Positions 2,081 through 54,154 of a stretch of DNA of 64,000 nucleotides are shown here, piece by piece. Source of the DNA: a virus (taxonomy: Duplodnaviria; Heunggongvirae; Uroviricota; Caudoviricetes); the IMG/VR virus record IMGVR_UViG_3300024268_000010; one strand, 5' to 3'. The notes beneath the pieces were generated by a model, which searched no databases, was not told the DNA's origin, and saw nothing but the letters and a program-made list of their open reading frames with translations. The translations under genes were made by a program, and so were the position numbers. How positions within the stretch are numbered: position 1 is the first letter of the stretch; the number at the start of each line of letters is the position of its first letter.

Positions 2081-5000
2081 GTGATGTTACTTTCAATTCC
2101 AAAGGATTATTTTGATAATCCAACACCACCTCGCTTATTTTTGTGTACGACAAACGGTAAGCGAATACAAGAATTAAATTATTATGATGGTTCCATAAAT
2201 GCAAAATGGAATACATACAGTGAATTGCAATTTTCTATTGATAGAACGTATATTGATGTGCTTAATGGTATTATTAAAACTCACCCATCATTTGGTAAAG
2301 CAGAATCATTACGACTTATAGAGGTTGAAGGTTTAGGGTTCTTTATACTACAAGACAGTGATGATTCTTATTCAGATAAAGATTCTAAATCGTTGTCTGC
2401 TTTTAGTCTTGATTACTCTTTAAGTTCTAAATACATAGAGCATTTTTTAATTAACAAAGGTAGTGAAGATTCAAAAGAGGTTATTTATCTTTCTACGATT
2501 TATGGGGATGGATATACTATTGATACAAATAATCTTTATAAACTTGCAACTGGAGATTATAATGCATATCAAGATTATTATATGTGTACTATTGAGAATA
2601 TTAAAAAATATGAACAAGTACAAGTTCAAGAATCAGATTATAATGCCTATATTGAAAAGAACATCGATCCAACATCTCAACCGTATGAAAGACTTTATGT
2701 CAAATCTTATCCAAATGTTAGCTTTTATAATCCTGCAATTCCAGAACTCAGCCTTTTGCATTTAATTATGAATTATGCACCAGACTGGTCTATTGGAAAT
2801 GTTGATACGATTTTGTGGAGAAAAGAACGTTCGTTTGAAATAGATAGAATTGATGTATACTCAATACTAACAAACGATATCGTAGATACATTTAAGTGTG
2901 TTGTTGAATTCGATATCCGTAATAAAAAAGTCAATTTTTACGAAGAAGCAGATGATGGGCTTACAGATGACGGCAAAGTTTTAACACGATGGGATACTGA
3001 TATTTATATTTCTCGTGATAACCTTGCTAACGAAGTAAATATTAAAGTATCTGGCGATAACATTAAAACCAAACTTAAAATTAGTGGCGGTGATAATATT
3101 GATATTTCCGAAGTTAACCTAGGGAAAAGCTATATTATGAATCTTGATTATTATCATAACGCAGATTGGATGGAACAAGATTTAATTGAGGCTTATAATG
3201 ATTATCTTGAGGCACAAGAAAAATACTCACAACCTTATGAAGATGCAGTACAACATGTTCTGTCTGCGCAAGAAAAATATAATGATTTATTATATGGTGT
3301 CGCAGCAGAAACAAATGTATTATTGATAGATGATATATTTAAGAAACTATTTTGTCTATATGAACCAATCAACAATGCCTATTGCAACATTACAATTACA
3401 AATGACGTGAGCGTAGTTAATGATTTGTATTCTACAGAAAAATTTGAAACCAATGCTTATATTATAAATAAAAACAGTTTAAATGATAAACAAATTTTTT
3501 GTGTACAAGGATATTGTTTTGTATATGATAGCAAAAGTAAGCAATTTGTAAATCAAGGTTCAATGTTAACTTATAATGAAAAAGCATTGTTTAAAAAATT
3601 GGCACTATATCATGTAAATGAGGATACAGACGCAAATGCTGGTGATAATATTTTGCTTACCTTAAAACATCCAGAAGGACATGAGGTAACAATTCGTATT
3701 TATAATACATACGAGATATACGAAGAGGATGTATATAACGACAAATACAACTATTATATAAAAAATGACAATGATACATATACAGAGGTAACAATAACAG
3801 ATGACAATTTTGCCAGTTATGCTGAGTTGCATATTCCACATTACAAGATTAAATGTATAAAAATTGACGCTAGTTACGGCTCGCAAGCACCAGTTGATTA
3901 TGAAATGTCACAATGGATTAGTGGACAACTTACAGATGAAGTGATGGGCGTAAAAGATTATTCAGTTGCTTCCATTGGTACTATGGGAGCATATTTAGTG
4001 CTTGCAAAAGATGAGAAAAAAGAAGAAAATATTGAAGATTATGGAATCCAACAATTACAAGGAAAATATGATGTATATTTAGAATTATTTTTAACACAAA
4101 CTCAAAATATGTTGTCTGCTGATGGTAAATCTTGTATCGCCACAGATGAAGAGCCTACTGGTAATTATATTGACGGCACACGTTGGTTAGATACAAATAG
4201 TAAGCCAGTTGTTTTAAGAGAATATTCAAATGGCTCATGGCAAAATATCACTAGTGCTGATTATTCACAAAAAAAGAGCGACGCGGAGAATTATGCTCGC
4301 TATACCGATAATTACGACAAAATGATTGTAGCACAAGAAATGCTTGTAAAAAAAAAGAAAGAAGCAGAATACTTAAAGAGTGGATATTCGGTTTCTGGAT
4401 TTAATAATATATTAGATACAACAAACGGATCGTCATTAGAGGGCAATATGCACCGAGTTGCATATAAACATTTTAATACACCTGCAGCAACTTATTATAC
4501 ATTTGAGGAGTTAAAAGTCTCTTATCCAAACGGTGCAACAGATGGTGTATATAAAGTTGGTGATGATTTATATGTGTGGAATAAAACAAGCAATGCTTGG
4601 GTTAAGGGTGAATATACAATAGTTAGAACATCTCTTGATAGCGTGTTGCCATTATATACATTCACAACATCTTATGATCCAATTGCCTATACACCAAACC
4701 TTGATCCGTATAATTCAAAAACACAATATTATGTACAGGGAGATATTCCAACTGTATATACGCTTAAAGAAATAGCAGACATTAATGAGTTTAATGAATA
4801 TGACGCAAGTGATAGTTCTAAAGTTTTATATGTTCAGACCGGACATGAATATGCAGTATATTTGCGTGGCAATACACCGTATGTTGCATATAAAGATTCA
4901 GAGGGAGTATGGCAAACAAAAAGAGAATATATTAGCCAGCAAACAGACATCGAAGCATTTTTAAGCAAAGACCAAATGATTCGTCTTTCTCCGTTAATTA

Positions 5001-23073: not shown

Positions 23074-24846
23074 TTAATTATTAAAATCAATTTTATATTT
23101 GCTCCAGACATCTGCCTTATGTCCATCTTTTATAAACAAAGAACTGAATAGCGCAACCAAACAACAAGTGCAGATACTATTGCCTGCTTGTTTGTATCTT
23201 GCACTTGCAGATGTGAATTTCGCAGCCCTATCGTGGTCGTTATCCGCGAACCCCATCAATCTCCAACACTCCTTGGGAGTTAACTTACGAATTCTCCACT
23301 TAATTTTGTCTTGAATCTCACCATTGGCAACTTCTAGTCCACCACAATTCTGCCTCAATGTAGGAGAATAGTTCTCGTAAATTCTTGCGTCTCTGCTACC
23401 AGGGAATTGATCTTCGATAATAACAGTCTTTTCAAGAATCTTTACACCATTGCGTTCTGCTGACGCTCCACAATTACAAGTCAGTGTATTAATGGCGTCT
23501 TGGTCAGAACTAATACGACTATTATAGTCATCATAAACAATTGGTTCTTTAACAATAAAACTTGATTGAGTAGTTGTGCCATTAAGTGCAGGGGCATAAC
23601 CATCAAATACTCTGTTAGCTTTATTGTATCCGTTAGGGAAACTAATGTCCGCACAATCACCTACATTAAATTCGTCAACCACATCACTATTAATGTATCG
23701 TTTAACATTACCGTCCTCGGTAATCATCTTCTTTTGTGTTTCAGTCCAAAGAGATTGAGGTTCTGCAACATAATTGTCTTTGAGCAGTGTAGTAATTGTA
23801 TTTGCAACACCATCTGTACGAGGCTTCATTTCTCTCATATTACCAATCTTCTCATTAACTTCACCTGCTTCATACTGTTTACGAATTGCCTTACCATATT
23901 CAGTTCTTTCGGCACGAAGCACTTGAGGTTCACAGATGTAATTGTCTTTTTGTACAGATGTTAGAGTGTTTGTACATCCGGTAAAGTTAGGTTCCAGTCT
24001 CTGCTCGGTAGGTGCACCAGTGGTTCTATCAGAAGGATTGTCTGGATTTCTTCCACGAGAAGCAACTATGAAAGGCTCTGGTTCAATGACCATCTGTCCT
24101 CTGTCACTCATAGGATTTGCAGGAATTGTATGAGCATAATCTCTAATAGAGTATTGACTAGTTCCTCTATCACCAAACTTTTGAATAATCACCGGCTCTT
24201 GTTCCTCTACAATTGGTAAAATTGCAGTTTTAAAACCATCTGGACGAGTGGTGATTGTAGGACAGATGCCAGTGTGATTAACCTTTTTATTAAATGCATC
24301 AACCATATCTCCCGGCTCACATGCATTTTCCATAATTGTTTCCATCACTTGACGGAAAAATCTTTCTTTAATATCTGTGGTTACAACCTGTTTGTTTTCT
24401 TCAATGACCATTGGTTCACGATTACCACCATCCATTTTAGTTAAAGTAGGGGCAATGCCGTTCACATCATAAACTCTTCCCTGATTGGGATTATCTCTTG
24501 TTTTTGTAGGGCAAACATTGCCAATCTGTTTAACTTCTGGTTCTTCTTCCACAGGAATACATTTCGGATCTTTATAATCTCTTGCAAGTAATGTATCACA
24601 CACATCGGTTGTTTGAATGCGTTTCTTTTCTTGCACAAATGTTGAGTTAAGAATCTTCTCGATACGGTCATCCGGAAGGTAGTATTTCTCATCAACCGAT
24701 TTTTCAAGGATATCTTTTAAACGAGTTGTGAGTGGAATCTGTTCAGGGAAGATGAAACCATGAGTATCTACATCTTTGCGAATTGATATAGCAAATACAC
24801 GTTCACGATTCTGCGGAATGCCATAGTTCTTTGCGTTGCAATTTGT
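23074..24846 (-). CDS. C5 cytosine DNA methyltransferase, C-terminal exon/segment (motifs VIII-X); upstream boundary approximate
   Basis: The reading frame stays open upstream of the ORF-track Met and encodes NCNAKNYGIPQNRERVF (motif VIII); motif X is YKQAGNSI. Confidence 0.6.
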   Translation of the reverse strand, partial: TNCNAKNYGIPQNRERVFAISIRKDVDTHGFIFPEQIPLTTRLKDILEKSVDEKYYLPDDRIEKILNSTFVQEKKRIQTTDVCDTLLARDYKDPKCIPVEEEPEVKQIGNVCPTKTRDNPNQGRVYDVNGIAPTLTKMDGGNREPMVIEENKQVVTTDIKERFFRQVMETIMENACEPGDMVDAFNKKVNHTGICPTITTRPDGFKTAILPIVEEQEPVIIQKFGDRGTSQYSIRDYAHTIPANPMSDRGQMVIEPEPFIVASRGRNPDNPSDRTTGAPTEQRLEPNFTGCTNTLTSVQKDNYICEPQVLRAERTEYGKAIRKQYEAGEVNEKIGNMREMKPRTDGVANTITTLLKDNYVAEPQSLWTETQKKMITEDGNVKRYINSDVVDEFNVGDCADISFPNGYNKANRVFDGYAPALNGTTTQSSFIVKEPIVYDDYNSRISSDQDAINTLTCNCGASAERNGVKILEKTVIIEDQFPGSRDARIYENYSPTLRQNCGGLEVANGEIQDKIKWRIRKLTPKECWRLMGFADNDHDRAAKFTSASARYKQAGNSICTCCLVALFSSLFIKDGHKADVWSKYKIDFNN

Positions 24847-25760
24847 TATCCTATGGGCTTTTTATCCCATAGTTCTTATAGTTTCCTATAAGTTCAGCAT
24901 ACTTTTTCACCCTCGTTTAACGTTAGGTTTGATATTATCTCAGAATAGACTATATCTATCCGTGTTGGTGCCTCTTGGAGAGGTTATATTCTATATGCAA
25001 TAGTTTCACTCTCTATGCGTTGCCCCTGACTACACTTTTAAATGTAGCCTTCGGTTCGAGTTAACTTATTATAAATAATAATTTCCAGTATTTTTGTCAA
25101 ATTTAATTACGCCTTGTTTGCACAACTCATATGATAATTTTTGCAACTGATCATGAAGTTGTTGGTGTTCTGTGTTATCTCGACACAAATACAAATTTTC
25201 CAAGTCGTCATTACTCTTATCACCATCAATATGATGTACAATTTCTTCTGAAGTTAATTTTCGACCAATTTGTTGTTCTATTTTTTCACGATGGGTAAAT
25301 ACTTTTTTATCATAATCAAACCAATATTTATACCCCGCTATGTCTCGATGCAATTGTTTTGGTTTGTCAATAAGCCCCAACTGCAATCTTTTTCTCATAA
25401 CAACATAGTGTCCAAATCCAAGTCTTCCAATATTTAAATCTTCCCATATTTCTTTGTCCGTCCTGGTCATCCAATGTGTTTTTAAGTATTCAATATCATC
25501 GTCTGACCACGGATAAATCTGACCCATAATACTTTTTTCTGTTATACCAAGTCTTTGATATTTGTTATTAATCGATGCCAAAGAAACATTGAAGATTTTG
25601 CAAAATTCTTTCTTAGATTTAGTTTTGTAATTATCTAAAATATACTGATTTTCCTCTTGCGTCCAATCATGAGCCATAACAATCACCTCTCATTCATGGA
25701 ATATTATTATTCATAACTTAGTTTTCTCGCTTAATTCACCAATCATAATCTTATTTATTT
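24847..25760 (-). other. intervening sequence splitting the methyltransferase gene (candidate group I intron) with an embedded HNH ORF; boundaries approximate
   Basis: About 0.9 kb lies between motif VI/VII and motif VIII of a single MTase. The 24850-25068 segment has no ORF and is rich in hairpins (ccttcgg, cctcttggagagg, ctacac...gtgtag) plus a GATATAGTC S-element-like string. Confidence 0.45.
25069..25686 (-). CDS. HNH homing endonuclease
   Basis: HNH motif VHHIDGDKSNDDLENLYLC...H; 205 aa inside the intervening sequence. Confidence 0.7.
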   Translation of the reverse strand: MIVMAHDWTQEENQYILDNYKTKSKKEFCKIFNVSLASINNKYQRLGITEKSIMGQIYPWSDDDIEYLKTHWMTRTDKEIWEDLNIGRLGFGHYVVMRKRLQLGLIDKPKQLHRDIAGYKYWFDYDKKVFTHREKIEQQIGRKLTSEEIVHHIDGDKSNDDLENLYLCRDNTEHQQLHDQLQKLSYELCKQGVIKFDKNTGNYYL

Positions 25761-26489
25761 CTAAACAAGACGCCCACTGAGCACCTTCCAATATGTGTTA
25801 TATCCAACACTATCAAGCCAACGAACCCATGCTTCAAACTGTCCAATAAACTTCTTCTGCACCAAATTCTTGACATTTTCAAGCATTAAATATTCAGGCA
25901 ACTCATTTTCCTCATATGCTACAGAAAGCAATCTCTGCACTTCTTGGAGCAAACCAGAAGTCGTGCTTTCAAGAGAAGCATTACCACATACTGGACACTT
26001 GTAATTGTAGTCGGGATTGCTAAAGTCGATATCCCATTTGTGACCACACTTAGTACAAGTCTTTGCCGCTCCAGCCAACTTTCCAGCAACAGAAAATGAC
26101 TGACATGGACTACTATATGTAACAAAATTTGCACGAGGCAAGCGTTCAACTTTTGATATGTCACCCAAATTCTTCAGGAGTTTGTCACTAATGTAATATT
26201 GTTTCAGTTTAGGGATGGGTGTTCTGTTTGTAATAGTATGTTTTGATTTCTCAAAATCATATCCTATATTCTTTTCTTGAAGTTCTTTTATCATAATTTC
26301 TGCACTAGGAAAATTATAACTTTCAATTTCCCTTTCAAGGTCAAATCTCATCGCAGCAGATGACACAAGAACATCTTTATCACAATCACATACGCCAACA
26401 CTTTCGTATGGAATATTTAATTGCCGAATTGCTCGTTCTTGGCTTTGAATTCCACTGAATAGTTCTAACAGTTTAATTGATTCTGTCAT
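25761..26489 (-). CDS. C5 cytosine DNA methyltransferase, N-terminal exon/segment (motifs I, IV, VI)
   Basis: LFSGIQ (motif I), SPCQSFSVAG (motif IV), ENVKNLV (motif VI); start taken at MTESIK with the RBS aaaggtga. Confidence 0.65.
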   Translation of the reverse strand: MTESIKLLELFSGIQSQERAIRQLNIPYESVGVCDCDKDVLVSSAAMRFDLEREIESYNFPSAEIMIKELQEKNIGYDFEKSKHTITNRTPIPKLKQYYISDKLLKNLGDISKVERLPRANFVTYSSPCQSFSVAGKLAGAAKTCTKCGHKWDIDFSNPDYNYKCPVCGNASLESTTSGLLQEVQRLLSVAYEENELPEYLMLENVKNLVQKKFIGQFEAWVRWLDSVGYNTYWKVLSGRLV

Positions 26490-26599: not shown

Positions 26600-26627
26600 A
26601 TTATAGCATATTATTACCAATTGTCAA
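26600..26627 (-). promoter_or_regulatory. canonical TTGACA-16-TATAAT promoter followed by the ACAGTACAAAATGATT leader
   Basis: On the - strand: TTGACAattggtaataatatgcTATAATatatACAGTACAAAATGATTATG. Confidence 0.55.
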
Positions 26628-29675: not shown

Positions 29676-30834
29676 TTTTCAAATATGTGATGTAGTCATT
29701 GTTTTGGCACATGGTTTTGCCGGGCACATCACTCAATTTTGCAACTGGATGTCCATTAACATATTGCAATTTAATAACAATATTGATAGGGTTGACATTA
29801 GTATCGTTACTTAAATAAGTACCAATCCCAAAACTTACATTGATTCTGTCTTTAAGTACATCATAAATACTCTGTGCCTTGTCAAAATCCAGACCGTCGC
29901 TAAACAGTAATGTTTTCGTTTTAGGATCGATTCCAAGTTTTTCGTAATGAGCAATCAATTTTTCTCCCCACTCAATCGGATCACCACTATCATGTCTTAC
30001 ACCAGTATAACAAGTTGCTTGAAGTCTATTAAAGTCCATAAGAAACAAGTCTGTGCCAAGTGTGTCAGTAAGTGCAGTGCCGAGATCTCCTTGATATTCA
30101 TCGAACCATTCATCCATTGCCATCTTATTTGTATATGCAAGAGTTACACCAGGAATACCTTGAAACATTTGTACATATTCGTGAGCATATGTACCAATAG
30201 GCTTGCACCCATACTTCATTGCAAGATATACATTAGAAGTACCAACACACTTGCCCGTTAAAAGAAGACGTTCGACCGCAAAATCTTGGAACTCTCTACT
30301 TAATCTTCTACGGCAACCAAATTCCGCAAAATTAAATGTATATTTTCCTGTGTTAATATTATGCATTTTATGAAAGAGTTTTATAACCGCAGAATCCAGA
30401 AGTTCATCATAATCATATTTCATTCTAAAATATACTTCATTCACAATTTCAAGAAGATAGATTTCAAACTGCATTACGGAAAACAGTGGTCCATCAACTT
30501 GAAGATTGAGCGTGCCGTCTGGGTTGCCGTGACAAGTGACATATCTACGAAGAGGGCGCCAGAGACGAAGGAATTCCACATAGTCAGATTTAATAAACCG
30601 AAGTGAATTTAGATAATCAAGTTCTTCGTCGGTAAATGTAAGTGTACAAAAGTGGTCAATCTGTGCATTGATTTCATCAACCATTTCAGGAGTAAATTCA
30701 ACATCTTTATTACGACATTTGAAAAGATAAACACCATTTAAATTAGTATGTTTATGAAACATTACCTGTCCCATTGTAAACTTATATAAATCTGTATCCG
30801 TCAAATGCGTAATAATAGGGCTAAGTTTCATCAT
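29641..30834 (-). CDS. pncB: nicotinate phosphoribosyltransferase
   Basis: Strong similarity to E. coli PncB along its length: DTDLYKFTM, GVRHDSGDPIEWGEKLIAHYEKLGIDPKTKTLLFSD, NIVIKLQYVNGHPVAKLSDVPGKTMC. Confidence 0.85.
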   Translation of the reverse strand: MMKLSPIITHLTDTDLYKFTMGQVMFHKHTNLNGVYLFKCRNKDVEFTPEMVDEINAQIDHFCTLTFTDEELDYLNSLRFIKSDYVEFLRLWRPLRRYVTCHGNPDGTLNLQVDGPLFSVMQFEIYLLEIVNEVYFRMKYDYDELLDSAVIKLFHKMHNINTGKYTFNFAEFGCRRRLSREFQDFAVERLLLTGKCVGTSNVYLAMKYGCKPIGTYAHEYVQMFQGIPGVTLAYTNKMAMDEWFDEYQGDLGTALTDTLGTDLFLMDFNRLQATCYTGVRHDSGDPIEWGEKLIAHYEKLGIDPKTKTLLFSDGLDFDKAQSIYDVLKDRINVSFGIGTYLSNDTNVNPINIVIKLQYVNGHPVAKLSDVPGKTMCQNNDYITYLKNAVDYRIKEGI

Positions 30835-33422: not shown

Positions 33423-34004
33423 TTATTCTGCGTCAATTCCATATGTGGCACACAGTTTTGCTAAGCCACCATTATATCCACTGCCAATTGCTTTGAATTG
33501 CCACTGACTATTGTGCTTATAAATTTCTCCAACGACCAATGCTGTTTGTGTGGAGAAATCCTCACTCAAATCATAGCGCAAAATTTCTTCGTTGTTATTC
33601 TCGTCAACAAGTCGAATATAGGCATTAGAAATCATTCCGAAGTTTTGAAGTCTATGCTCTGCGTCATAAATTGTAATAACTGCAACCAATCGTTCATAAC
33701 CATCAGGAATTTTTGACAATTCGATTTTGATCACCTCGTCGTCTCCGTCACCTTCGCCAGTACGATTATCTCCGGTGTGAATCACACTTTTGCTCGGATG
33801 TGTTAAATTACCATAAAAGACAAAATCATTATCATTGCCTACCTTGCCATTGTGCTTAAGCATGAAAATTGACGCGTCCAAATCAAAATTTGCTTCGCCG
33901 TCATAGTGATTAATATCCCAACCCAAACCAATAAGAACCTTATCAAGAGAGGGGTTGCCTTTTGTAAGGCTCACCCTCTGACCTTTGTTTAAACTTACAG
34001 ACAT
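33423..34004 (-). CDS. TerD-domain protein (paralogue 1)
   Basis: TerD hallmarks: GLGWD, the acidic Ca-binding GDNRTGEGDGDDE loop, FGMI. Confidence 0.85.
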   Translation of the reverse strand: MSVSLNKGQRVSLTKGNPSLDKVLIGLGWDINHYDGEANFDLDASIFMLKHNGKVGNDNDFVFYGNLTHPSKSVIHTGDNRTGEGDGDDEVIKIELSKIPDGYERLVAVITIYDAEHRLQNFGMISNAYIRLVDENNNEEILRYDLSEDFSTQTALVVGEIYKHNSQWQFKAIGSGYNGGLAKLCATYGIDAE

Positions 34005-53899: not shown

Positions 53900-54028
53900 T
53901 GGTTGAGAGGGTTGGATTCGAACCAACGAGGCACAATGCCGATGGATTTACAGTCCAGAACATTGCTGCGTAGTCTCTATCAAGACTAACATAAGGCTCC
54001 ATTGCGTTTACCACTTCGCCACCTCTCA
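53900..54028 (-). tRNA. tRNA-Tyr (GTA)-like gene carrying an insertion of about 43 nt between the D-arm and the anticodon loop
   Basis: Perfect acceptor TGAGAGG/CCTCTCA, D-arm GCGAAGTGGTAAACGC, anticodon CUGUAAA with TCCAT, Tyr-type variable arm, T-arm and CCA. The inserted block is flanked by a TGGA direct repeat and holds its own hairpin TAGTCT/AGACTA. Confidence 0.45.
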
Positions 54029-54036
54029 TTATTTGT

Positions 54037-54154
54037 TGCACGGAGTAGGATTCGAACCTACGGCACCAGGCACCCGAACGCATTGTAAATTTGCAGTTTA
54101 GGTTTATGTCTAAACCCAATTATTACTGTGCTCTACCAGCTGAGCTATCCGTGC
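54037..54154 (-). tRNA. tRNA-like gene with an expanded central region of about 45 nt; anticodon unresolved
   Basis: Perfect acceptor GCACGGA/TCCGTGC, D-arm GCTCAGCTGGTAGAGC, T-arm GTAGG-TTCGAAT-CCTAC; the insert contains the hairpin GGTTTA/TAAACC and a TTTACAAT box. Confidence 0.4.

Follow-up and report, generated by a model that had tools for sequence, protein, structure and literature searches.

A phage C5-cytosine methyltransferase gene very probably split by a mobile group I (subgroup IA) intron

A single C5-cytosine methyltransferase gene occupies positions 23074–26489 on the minus strand of a 64,000-nt stretch of Caudoviricetes DNA (IMG/VR record IMGVR_UViG_3300024268_000010), which we refer to as the window and whose positions are used for all coordinates; an insertion that carries an HNH endonuclease gene and is very probably a group I intron separates the second and third bases of its codon 237, in the interval from motif VI to motif VIII. 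Exon 1 (25780–26489, 710 nt) comprises codons 1–236 and two bases of Leu237, ends in ...GGUGCU, and contains motifs I, IV, and VI as well as a CxxC...CxxC insert. In the open reading frame (ORF) at 25761–26489 these motifs stand at aa 10 (I, LFSGIQ), 128 (IV, PCQSFS), and 203 (VI, ENV), and the match of this upstream half to the Pfam profile DNA_methylase (PF00145; 63.5 bits) ends at profile position 143 of 324. Exon 2 (23074–24838, 1765 nt) starts with C^AAC GCA AAG (..L-N-A-K-N-Y-G-I-P-Q-N-R-E-R; the caret marks a splice site here and below) and contains motif VIII, then a stretch of about 500 aa in which nine target-recognition-type motifs lie, and after it motifs IX and X with the stop codon. 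Its frame, that of the ORF at 23074–24636, is open upstream as far as a stop at 24864; motif VIII reads QNRERVF and motif X GNSI, and the PF00145 match of this downstream half (72.6 bits) begins at profile position 142. The halves thus abut on the profile, and the split gene as observed is well outside what chance would produce. An earlier note on this DNA, made from the sequence without database searches, had already assigned motifs I, IV, and VI to the one ORF and motifs VIII–X to the upstream extension of the other, and both assignments hold.

The insertion, which that note had put at about 0.9 kb, is 941 nt long (24839–25779), starts with CAGUGGGCGUC, and ends with GAUAACAAAUUG. Its excision gives a continuous 824-aa ORF in which the Leu237 codon is rebuilt as CU^C at the exon junction (predicted ligated exons GGAAGGTGCT^CAACGCAAAG), and motifs I, IV, VI, VIII, IX, and X follow at aa 10, 128, 203, 246, 754, and 788, in canonical order on one polypeptide. 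An allele without the insertion is found on a syntenic contig (L008), in which the same five genes follow downstream; its methyltransferase is uninterrupted and has a protein identity of 94% with that of the window. The two DNAs align to window position 25783 and again from 24833, and the additional window DNA falls between. Both the insertion and exon 2 start with CA, so that this alignment alone sets the borders only to within two bases. They are fixed exactly, at 25780/25779 and 24839/24838, by the rules for group I introns, which have a U before the 5' splice site paired to a G, and a G as the last base: the last base of exon 1, U25780, forms a U.G wobble with G25774 of the guide sequence at the 5' splice site, and the last base of the intron, immediately 5' of exon 2, is G24839. 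A terminal G is present in all relatives in which the 3' boundary can be set.

The joined protein matches solved structures (M.MpeI, 4dkj, at 1e-26; M.HhaI at 9e-20). It aligns without a gap across the junction, both with the M.MpeI structure 4dkj and with eight uninterrupted homologues of 73–94% identity; alignment to intact orthologs was one of the checks proposed in the earlier note. At the junction it reads GYNTYWKVL^NAKNYGIPQNRERVF, compared with GYNTYWKVLNGKHYGIPQNRERVF in the uninterrupted homologues. The junction peptide GYNTYWKVL and the restored motif VIII region are therefore as previously proposed, except that the leading "NC" of the proposed exon-2 peptide is encoded by the last bases of the intron. 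The arrangement of methylase half, HNH gene, and methylase half is seen again in contigs of independent samples and is therefore not an assembly artefact; the identical exon-2 protein was found on 15 contigs.

Gene callers place three separate genes at this locus, of 272, 202, and 520 aa, where we see one 824-aa enzyme. Their output agrees with an alternative in which the methyltransferase is naturally split, its halves being translated separately and assembling into an active enzyme, with a mere endonuclease gene as the spacer; two-subunit C5-methyltransferases do exist, M.AquI being an example. Such an enzyme would need a start for its second half, and in the exon-2 frame there is no in-frame ATG, GTG, or TTG from the stop at 24864 to codon 67. 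The first candidate start, GTG 24636, lies downstream of motif VIII and has no ribosome-binding site. The break is moreover inside the catalytic domain, nine residues ahead of QNRER, and the 332 nt of noncoding sequence in the insertion show covariation at the RNA level, unlike a spacer. We regard a split enzyme as extremely unlikely, and the option of two separate polypeptides that the earlier note had left beside the intron fails on the missing start ahead of motif VIII.

The HNH endonuclease gene (25069–25677; 202 aa and stop codon, 609 nt) occupies the terminal loop of helix P5 of the RNA fold described below. It is read from ATG 25677 behind a GAGGTGA ribosome-binding site (Shine–Dalgarno sequence GAGAGGUGA, 25691–25683), or as 205 aa from GTG 25686, and is followed by 230 ORF-free nucleotides (25068–24839), in keeping with the 205-aa gene and about 220 nt reported earlier. 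Its final codons double as the 3' strand of the stem that extends P5 (25086–25069) and the remainder lies outside the ribozyme stems; intron endonuclease ORFs sit in peripheral loops, outside the core (PMC3984707). The protein matches Pfam HNH_3 (29.3 bits, cut-off 24.8) and PHROG families of HNH endonucleases (up to 9.3e-18), and the HNH core ..VHHIDGDKSNDDLENL...EHQQLH is present in the translation. The N-terminal two thirds contain two similar W-x-helix modules, which from their sequence probably bind DNA. Only distant HNH-domain relatives were found in IMG/VR.

Group I introns contain the conserved elements P, Q, R, and S, of which P pairs with Q to form P4 and R with S to form P7 (PMC3984707). 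We placed these elements in the window guided by three ORF-free relatives in which the ribozyme is undivided (c-st, Aeromonas phage ACP1, and bajarodcaudo virus 2): P is AAUUAAGCGAGAAA (25736–25723), Q CUCGAACCGAAGG (25060–25048), R GGGGCAACGCAUAG (25026–25013), and S GUGAAAAAGUAUGCUGAA (24910–24893), all on the minus strand. The 5' ribozyme part (25692–25779) holds the guide sequence, P2, the 5' strand of P3, the P element with the 5' strand of P4, and the 5' strand of P5. P1 is formed by the exon end GGUGCU (25785–25780) with the internal guide sequence GGCGUC (25774–25769), and P2 by 25769–25762 with 25757–25750 around a GAAA loop. P3 pairs UUGGUG (25742–25737) with CACCAA of P3' (24970–24965) and thereby spans the ORF, and P4 pairs CGAG (25729–25726) with CUCG (25060–25057) within the P and Q elements. 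The P5 extension stem, 18 bp formed by 25716–25698 and 25086–25069, encloses the HNH ORF; its pairs are canonical throughout, it is fully recovered in the minimum free energy fold, and four diverged lineages conserve it, with energies of −19.6 to −25.1 kcal/mol. The 3' ribozyme part (24839–25068) opens with P5' and P4' and continues with P6 (25054–25053/25026–25025), P6a (25049–25043/25034–25028), P7 (GCAUA/UAUGC, 25018–25014/24901–24897), and P7.1 (25013–25009/24982–24978), which encloses P7.1a (25003–25000/24994–24991). A CAAGAGG motif lies between P7.1 and P3', followed by a branched P8 region (24959–24911), P9 with a GAAA loop (24892–24886/24881–24875), the P9.1 hairpin (24872–24866/24857–24851) with the family-wide loop GAUAAAAAGC, and the tail GAUAACAAAUUG with its terminal G at 24839. 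Three assignments that had first been made by hand were overturned by the comparative data: CCUCU-cca-AGAGG as P7.2, GAUAUAGUCU/AGAUAAUAUC as P8, and GAUAUAGUC (24956) as the S element.

The noncoding parts of the insertion belong to a family. In blastn searches they matched at least 86 phage records in two blocks of 72–91% identity, nearly always in unannotated gaps, and in every case inspected the match falls between the halves of a split gene. The host genes include gyrA (Yersinia phage phiR1-37 and Bacillus phage Goe21), the tape measure gene of Staphylococcus and Mammaliicoccus Sextaecvirus phages, a YomI-like gene of Clostridium phage c-st, the major tail gene of vB-SscS-F1, and genes of Enterocloster and Listeria phages; in the deposited annotations gyrA and the tape measure, major tail, and YomI-like genes appear as separate fragments. 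The family loci, our L001–L003 and L010–L015, are GenBank PQ006093, OP172753, MZ417338, OQ999172, AP008983, PP601403, AJ972879, OM728297, and MW589261. Their ribozymes are homologous to that of the window, with shared P, Q, R, and S elements, CA(A/C)GAG before P3', and the P9.1 loop GAUAAAAAGC, and all helices covary. Host genes and guide sequences differ, and so does the pairing between guide and exon, with GGU/GCC in the relatives and GCU/GGC in the window. The ORFs are unrelated or absent and elsewhere sit in P1 or P8; this fits the usual picture, in which endonuclease genes invade ribozymes independently (PMC3984707). The intron in the Staphylococcus phage tape measure gene, as that of the window, has an HNH ORF in the P5 loop; the two HNH proteins are unrelated.

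A second, different group I intron was seen in Enterocloster phage CB457P1 (L002, 3322–3653; Rfam 93.6 bits), about 750 nt downstream of the family member and adjoining a gene annotated as "intron-associated endonuclease 1." This phage thus has introns of two types within a short distance of each other.

Several tests bear on the fold. With strands placed by anchored motifs, helices P3, P4, P6, P7, and P7.1 gave canonical pairs in 198 of 198 cases in nine introns, compared with 61–92 of 198 when the 3' strands were slid and at most 157 of 198 in permutations, and compensatory double changes occurred at 16 of the 22 positions of these helices. An independent pair-counting tool, run on the unedited MAFFT alignment of ten ORF-deleted introns, found changes on both sides in 38 of 48 pairs (23 when shuffled, 12–15 when slid) and a covariation score of 0.625 against 0.21, which none of 500 shuffles reached. 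The same tool counted 93.1% of cells as paired (69% shuffled, 32–44% slid). Paired fractions such as these are inflated by our having read the helices by eye from the sequences used for the counting, which has no effect on the compensatory changes or on the covariance model described next. This model, R1, was built solely on nine introns that interrupt different genes in other phages, with the window and its same-site relatives excluded. It matches the 64-kb window once, over the full length of the model, at 24893–25063 (109.9 bits, E 1.1e-22), and no second copy was found there. An unbiased minimum free energy prediction for the intron without its ORF contains P2, P3, P4, the stem around the ORF, P6a, P9, and P9.1 (z = −7.4); P7 forms a pseudoknot with P3 and is therefore beyond the reach of a prediction of this type. 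Candidates for further introns in the window, weak self-matches at 30429/30149 and R- or S-like motifs at 33662/31550, all fall within intact ORFs and were rejected.

The reading of helices by eye is one of several points that weigh against a group I intron at this site. P10 is weak, with about 2 bp. The exact 24-mer of the ligated exons is absent from public metagenome assemblies, which is uninformative on splicing. The HNH protein had no match to any solved structure in a sequence search of the PDB, and we infer both the splicing chemistry and the homing-endonuclease activity of this protein, with its target, from sequence. In permissive mode the Rfam group I model (RF00028) gave only 17.4 bits at 24875–25053 (E 0.15; gathering score 50), with an alignment that is partly wrong and in which the S–P9 segment matches the Rfam consensus; at the gathering score it reported no intron over the window. 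The same model detected none of nine relatives of the window intron, its only hit in these loci being the unrelated canonical intron elsewhere in L002, yet it recovered the three experimentally known introns of Staphylococcus phage Twort at 64–101 bits, and its low score is therefore uninformative for the window intron. The earlier note had named, beside the lack of a spliced transcript, the lack of any hit by an intron covariance model as grounds for dropping the intron; taken literally for Rfam this amounts to a wrong rejection. Taking all points together, we consider it very likely that the insertion is a group I intron, and hold with equally high confidence that the locus is one gene for an 824-aa C5-cytosine methyltransferase into which a mobile intron of group I, subgroup IA, is inserted. 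The splice-site rules, the covariation from P1 to P9.1, the R1 match, and the intron-less syntenic allele thus bear out the suggestion that an intron restores a single methyltransferase.

The same evidence bears on another alternative, a "hidden" HNH cassette of the ShiLan type that has no ribozyme and is tolerated or removed in some other way, for example as an intein or by read-through. There are precedents: HNH, intein, and LAGLIDADG insertions in actinophage methylase genes come without a detectable intron (PMC11855218), a homologue of the window methylase (P0008) has an in-frame insertion with AP2 and HNH_3 domains in its recognition-module region, and L029, one of the contigs related to the window, has a second endonuclease insertion in the recognition-module region (3193–3924), a 243-aa HNH gene between two methylase fragments, in which neither R1 nor Rfam found a ribozyme. 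These insertions in L029 and P0008 resemble the hidden HNH insertions of actinophage methylases (PMC11855218). In the window, the exon-1 frame stops six codons into the insertion (..VLSGRLV-stop), which excludes both read-through and an intein, that is, an in-frame insertion with splicing blocks; and the HNH ORF is flanked by a complete group I fold that R1 recognized independently. A ribozyme-free cassette at this site is therefore scarcely credible.

Close relatives of the HNH protein (46–85% identity) form about two dozen clusters. In each of the six contigs that we inspected (L029/L030, L031/L032, and L033/L034) they are flanked by fragments of a methylase, and the insertion site is identical in the six, with ..UGCU^CA(A/G)UGGGCGU.. 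at the 5' and ..AAAUUG^CAAYGC.. at the 3' splice site, encoding (L)NAK(N/H/D)YGIPQNRER. Within this same-site lineage compensatory substitutions are seen in P1, P2, P3, P5, P7.1, P7.1a, P8, and P9.1, including position −6 of the exon, which pairs as G-C in the window and as A-U in L033. The site itself is in the most conserved stretch of the enzyme, beside QxRxR. As a rule homing endonucleases target the codons of critical residues, and the position of the insertion fits this rule. The gene is polymorphic for the presence of the intron, with alleles that lack it (L008 and L004) and alleles that have it (the window and L029–L034). Between the same-site lineages the ribozyme parts are 78–96% identical, whereas the flanking exons are 72–85% identical and barely alignable for L033. 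Better conservation of the ribozyme, together with intron-less alleles, typifies an intron that is mobile or was so until recently, though it is no proof that the endonuclease is active now.

Two other genes look split on the contigs with intron-less alleles. In L004 the S-adenosylmethionine synthetase seems to be divided into its N and M domains (800–1339) and its C domain (1532–1828), with a gap of about 190 nt (800–1828 overall), and the NAD-ligase region of L008 (795–2917) consists of ORFs of 308 and 371 aa where the window has a single 651-aa gene. No ribozyme was found in either region with R1 or Rfam.

The expression of the interrupted gene may be pictured as follows. A promoter-like site at 26627–26600 on the minus strand, with TTGACA, a 16-nt spacer with TG, and TATAAT (12 of 12 consensus matches in a promoter scan), sits about 110 nt upstream of the start codon of the methyltransferase and, judging by this consensus match, would serve for its transcription. 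The perfect sigma-70-type match suggests that the methylase is transcribed by the host polymerase, possibly early. A single transcript is consistent with this site and with the absence of any minus-strand terminator from the intron. The methylase would thus be made as one pre-mRNA, probably from this promoter. The 18-bp stem would unite the ribozyme halves (25779–25692 and 25068–24839) and loop the 609-nt HNH gene out of P5, and the guide GGCGUC would pair with the exon-1 end GGUGCU to set the U.G wobble at the 5' splice site. The attack on this site would come from a free guanosine in the P7 pocket; the terminal G of the intron would then take the same pocket, and the freed end of exon 1 would attack the 3' splice site. 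Ligation would complete the Leu237 codon and produce ...YWKVL-NAKNYGIPQNRER..., linking catalytic motifs VI and VIII. The HNH protein would be translated from its own ribosome-binding site. Its expected role in mixed infections is to nick or cleave methylase genes that lack the intron, in or close to the highly conserved site, and repair would copy the intron in (homing).

Efficient splicing at present seems probable, with somewhat less confidence than the identity of the insertion as a group I intron. In the opposite case the intron would be real and splicing lost or too poor, the methylase would effectively be a pseudogene, and only a truncated exon-1 product of 242 aa and the HNH protein would be made. 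Splicing is deduced here, P10 is weak, the P8 region is unusually elaborate, with a branching common only to the c-st intron, and the ribozyme scores poorly with Rfam, all of which agrees with a dead intron. One would expect such an intron, sitting in a gene that is dispensable, to decay; instead all core helices are intact and maintained by compensatory changes in four lineages, the exons are free of frameshifts and stops at about 87–91% DNA identity to the intact allele, the HNH ORF is intact, and the same exon-2 protein recurs on 15 contigs. As exons, ORF, and all helices are intact in several lineages, we judge a dead intron to be very unlikely. A further, unlikely proposal starts from an active intron: splicing may do more than mend the gene and may gate the output of a nine-module, hyper-multispecific anti-restriction methylase, and homing cleavage may be tuned by the methylase's own cytosine methylation. 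The timing or level of the enzyme could then be set by ribozyme folding, guanosine supply, or translation of the HNH gene through the P5 stem, and tuned cleavage, if true, would make homing depend on how the genomes in a co-infection are modified.

The enzyme itself has nine recognition-type core motifs (x-[PNDH]-[TA]-[LI]-x; for example GIAPTLT, GICPTIT, CTNTLT, and VANTIT) at aa 310–745, and its homologues differ by the presence or absence of whole recognition modules. Residues 145–169 of exon 1 (about 25983–26057), between motifs IV and VI, form a CxxC...CxxC zinc-ribbon-like insert, CTKCGHKWDIDFSNPDYNYKCPVCG, which is kept in all close homologues and has a weak HypA-type Pfam match (E 0.0075). 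Among GenBank phages there is no close homologue of the methylase; the best identity is about 36%, and the best hits include Bacillus phages.

A 174,765-bp contig of a JGI metagenome (3300031555, Ga0318466_10001326), which looks like a large phage, contains the window DNA at 100% identity, and related contigs come from pig- and human-gut metagenomes. The 29-mer of the intron's 3' hairpin has no match among representative bacterial genomes. Neighbors of the methylase on the same strand encode an NAD-dependent ligase, NAPRTase, TerD proteins, ThyX, an anaerobic ribonucleotide reductase, and a tubulin homologue, and a tRNA cluster is present in the window. Two neighboring tRNA-like genes at 53903–54154 (minus strand) have clean acceptor, D, and T arms and an anticodon arm with added sequence. 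Rfam scores them as tRNA with 49.1 bits (54037–54154, 118 nt) and 43.8 bits (53903–54028, 126 nt). Both are missed by ARAGORN with default settings; its intron-aware mode reports a tRNA-Cys(GCA) with a 25-nt insertion at 34/35 and a tRNA-Tyr(GTA) with a 44-nt insertion at 31/32. Insertions of this kind are unusual in phage and, at these lengths, fall far below the size of group I introns; they may be small introns, decoys, or substrates for processing.

Among phage genes, well-known hosts of group I introns that carry homing endonucleases are those for DNA polymerase, ribonucleotide reductase, thymidylate synthase, lysin, terminase, tape measure, and tail tube proteins, and phage introns of subgroups IA1 and IA2 share partial sequence blocks across hosts (PMC3984707, PMC2504315, PMC3428280). 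DNA methyltransferase genes are not listed as bacterial or phage hosts of group I introns in the searchable reviews and surveys. The present case is thus an ordinary mechanism in a new host gene, with a ribozyme family that current annotation tools overlook. The single group I model of Rfam misses the whole family, and the new alignment and model can be used to re-annotate phage genomes. Related ribozymes in phages of Clostridia, Bacilli, and Proteobacteria mark routes of genetic exchange among very different phages. The nine-module enzyme, from its sequence, may be an unusually broad anti-restriction device with ribozyme-dependent expression.

Subgroup IA2 is characterized by a domain 7 with the two hairpins P7.1 and P7.2 and by a domain 9 extended to P9.0, P9.1, and P9.2 (PMC4227781). 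The window intron has two additional helices between P7 and P3', nested rather than tandem, and P9 with one further hairpin (P9.1), so that the resemblance to IA2 is partial, the two domain-7 helices being nested; it fits subgroup IA, which we leave undivided between IA1 and IA2. The introns of orf142 in Staphylococcus phage Twort (IA2; GenBank AF132670, annotated "contains group 1 introns") are, like that of the window, group IA introns that split a phage protein gene. Common to both is the order of elements, with a guide, a GNRA-capped P2, an R element ..GCAACG..UA, additional helices between P7 and P3', and, towards the 3' end, ..UGAAC ahead of a P9 with a GAAA cap, then the P9.1 hairpin and a tail ..UAACAnAAUUG whose last base is G. 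P7 is GACUA/UAGUC in Twort and GCAUA/UAUGC in the window, and the additional helices of domain 7 are tandem in Twort and nested in the window (P7.1 around P7.1a). Intron 2 of orf142 is the crystallized Twort ribozyme. The window intron has no significant nucleotide similarity to the Twort introns and R1 does not match them, so that the likeness is architectural only.

The multispecific C5-methyltransferases of Bacillus phages SPR, phi3T, rho11s, and H2, and M.phiBssHII (PMC340776, PMC457134, PMC1171429, as cited in PMC8936443), are, as far as these accounts describe them, solitary phage enzymes with tandem recognition modules between motifs VIII and IX, each module conferring one specificity; the window enzyme, also solitary and phage-encoded, seems from its recognition-type motifs to be built in the same way. 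Identity between them and the window enzyme is only about 30–36%. Nine recognition-type motifs over about 500 aa are, to our knowledge, more than the number known for the classical Bacillus phage enzymes, and the window enzyme may accordingly be described as a putative hyper-multispecific C5-methyltransferase with more modules than these; we know of no intron reported in a classical multispecific methyltransferase gene.

In its general design the window intron is close to those in the DNA polymerase genes of Bacillus phages SPO1 and SP82 (I-HmuI/I-HmuII) and of cyanophage Pf-WMP3 (with the nicking HNH enzyme I-PfoP3I; PMC3428280), all of them group IA introns with an HNH gene in a peripheral loop and a conserved phage gene as host, and all expected to be mobile by homing into intron-less alleles. 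They differ in the host gene, a DNA polymerase there and a DNA methyltransferase in the window, and in the HNH protein, which in the window has no sequence match to solved structures. Methylase genes as such are known targets: those of actinophages carry an intein, a lone LAGLIDADG gene, and the "ShiLan" hidden HNH insertions (PMC9957025, PMC11855218), and no ribozyme was found at the latter (PMC11855218). Actinophages and the window thus have in common a phage methylase targeted by endonuclease-bearing elements of the homing type, with presence/absence polymorphism among related phages, whereas the insertion in the window breaks the reading frame and comes with a complete group I ribozyme at its flanks.

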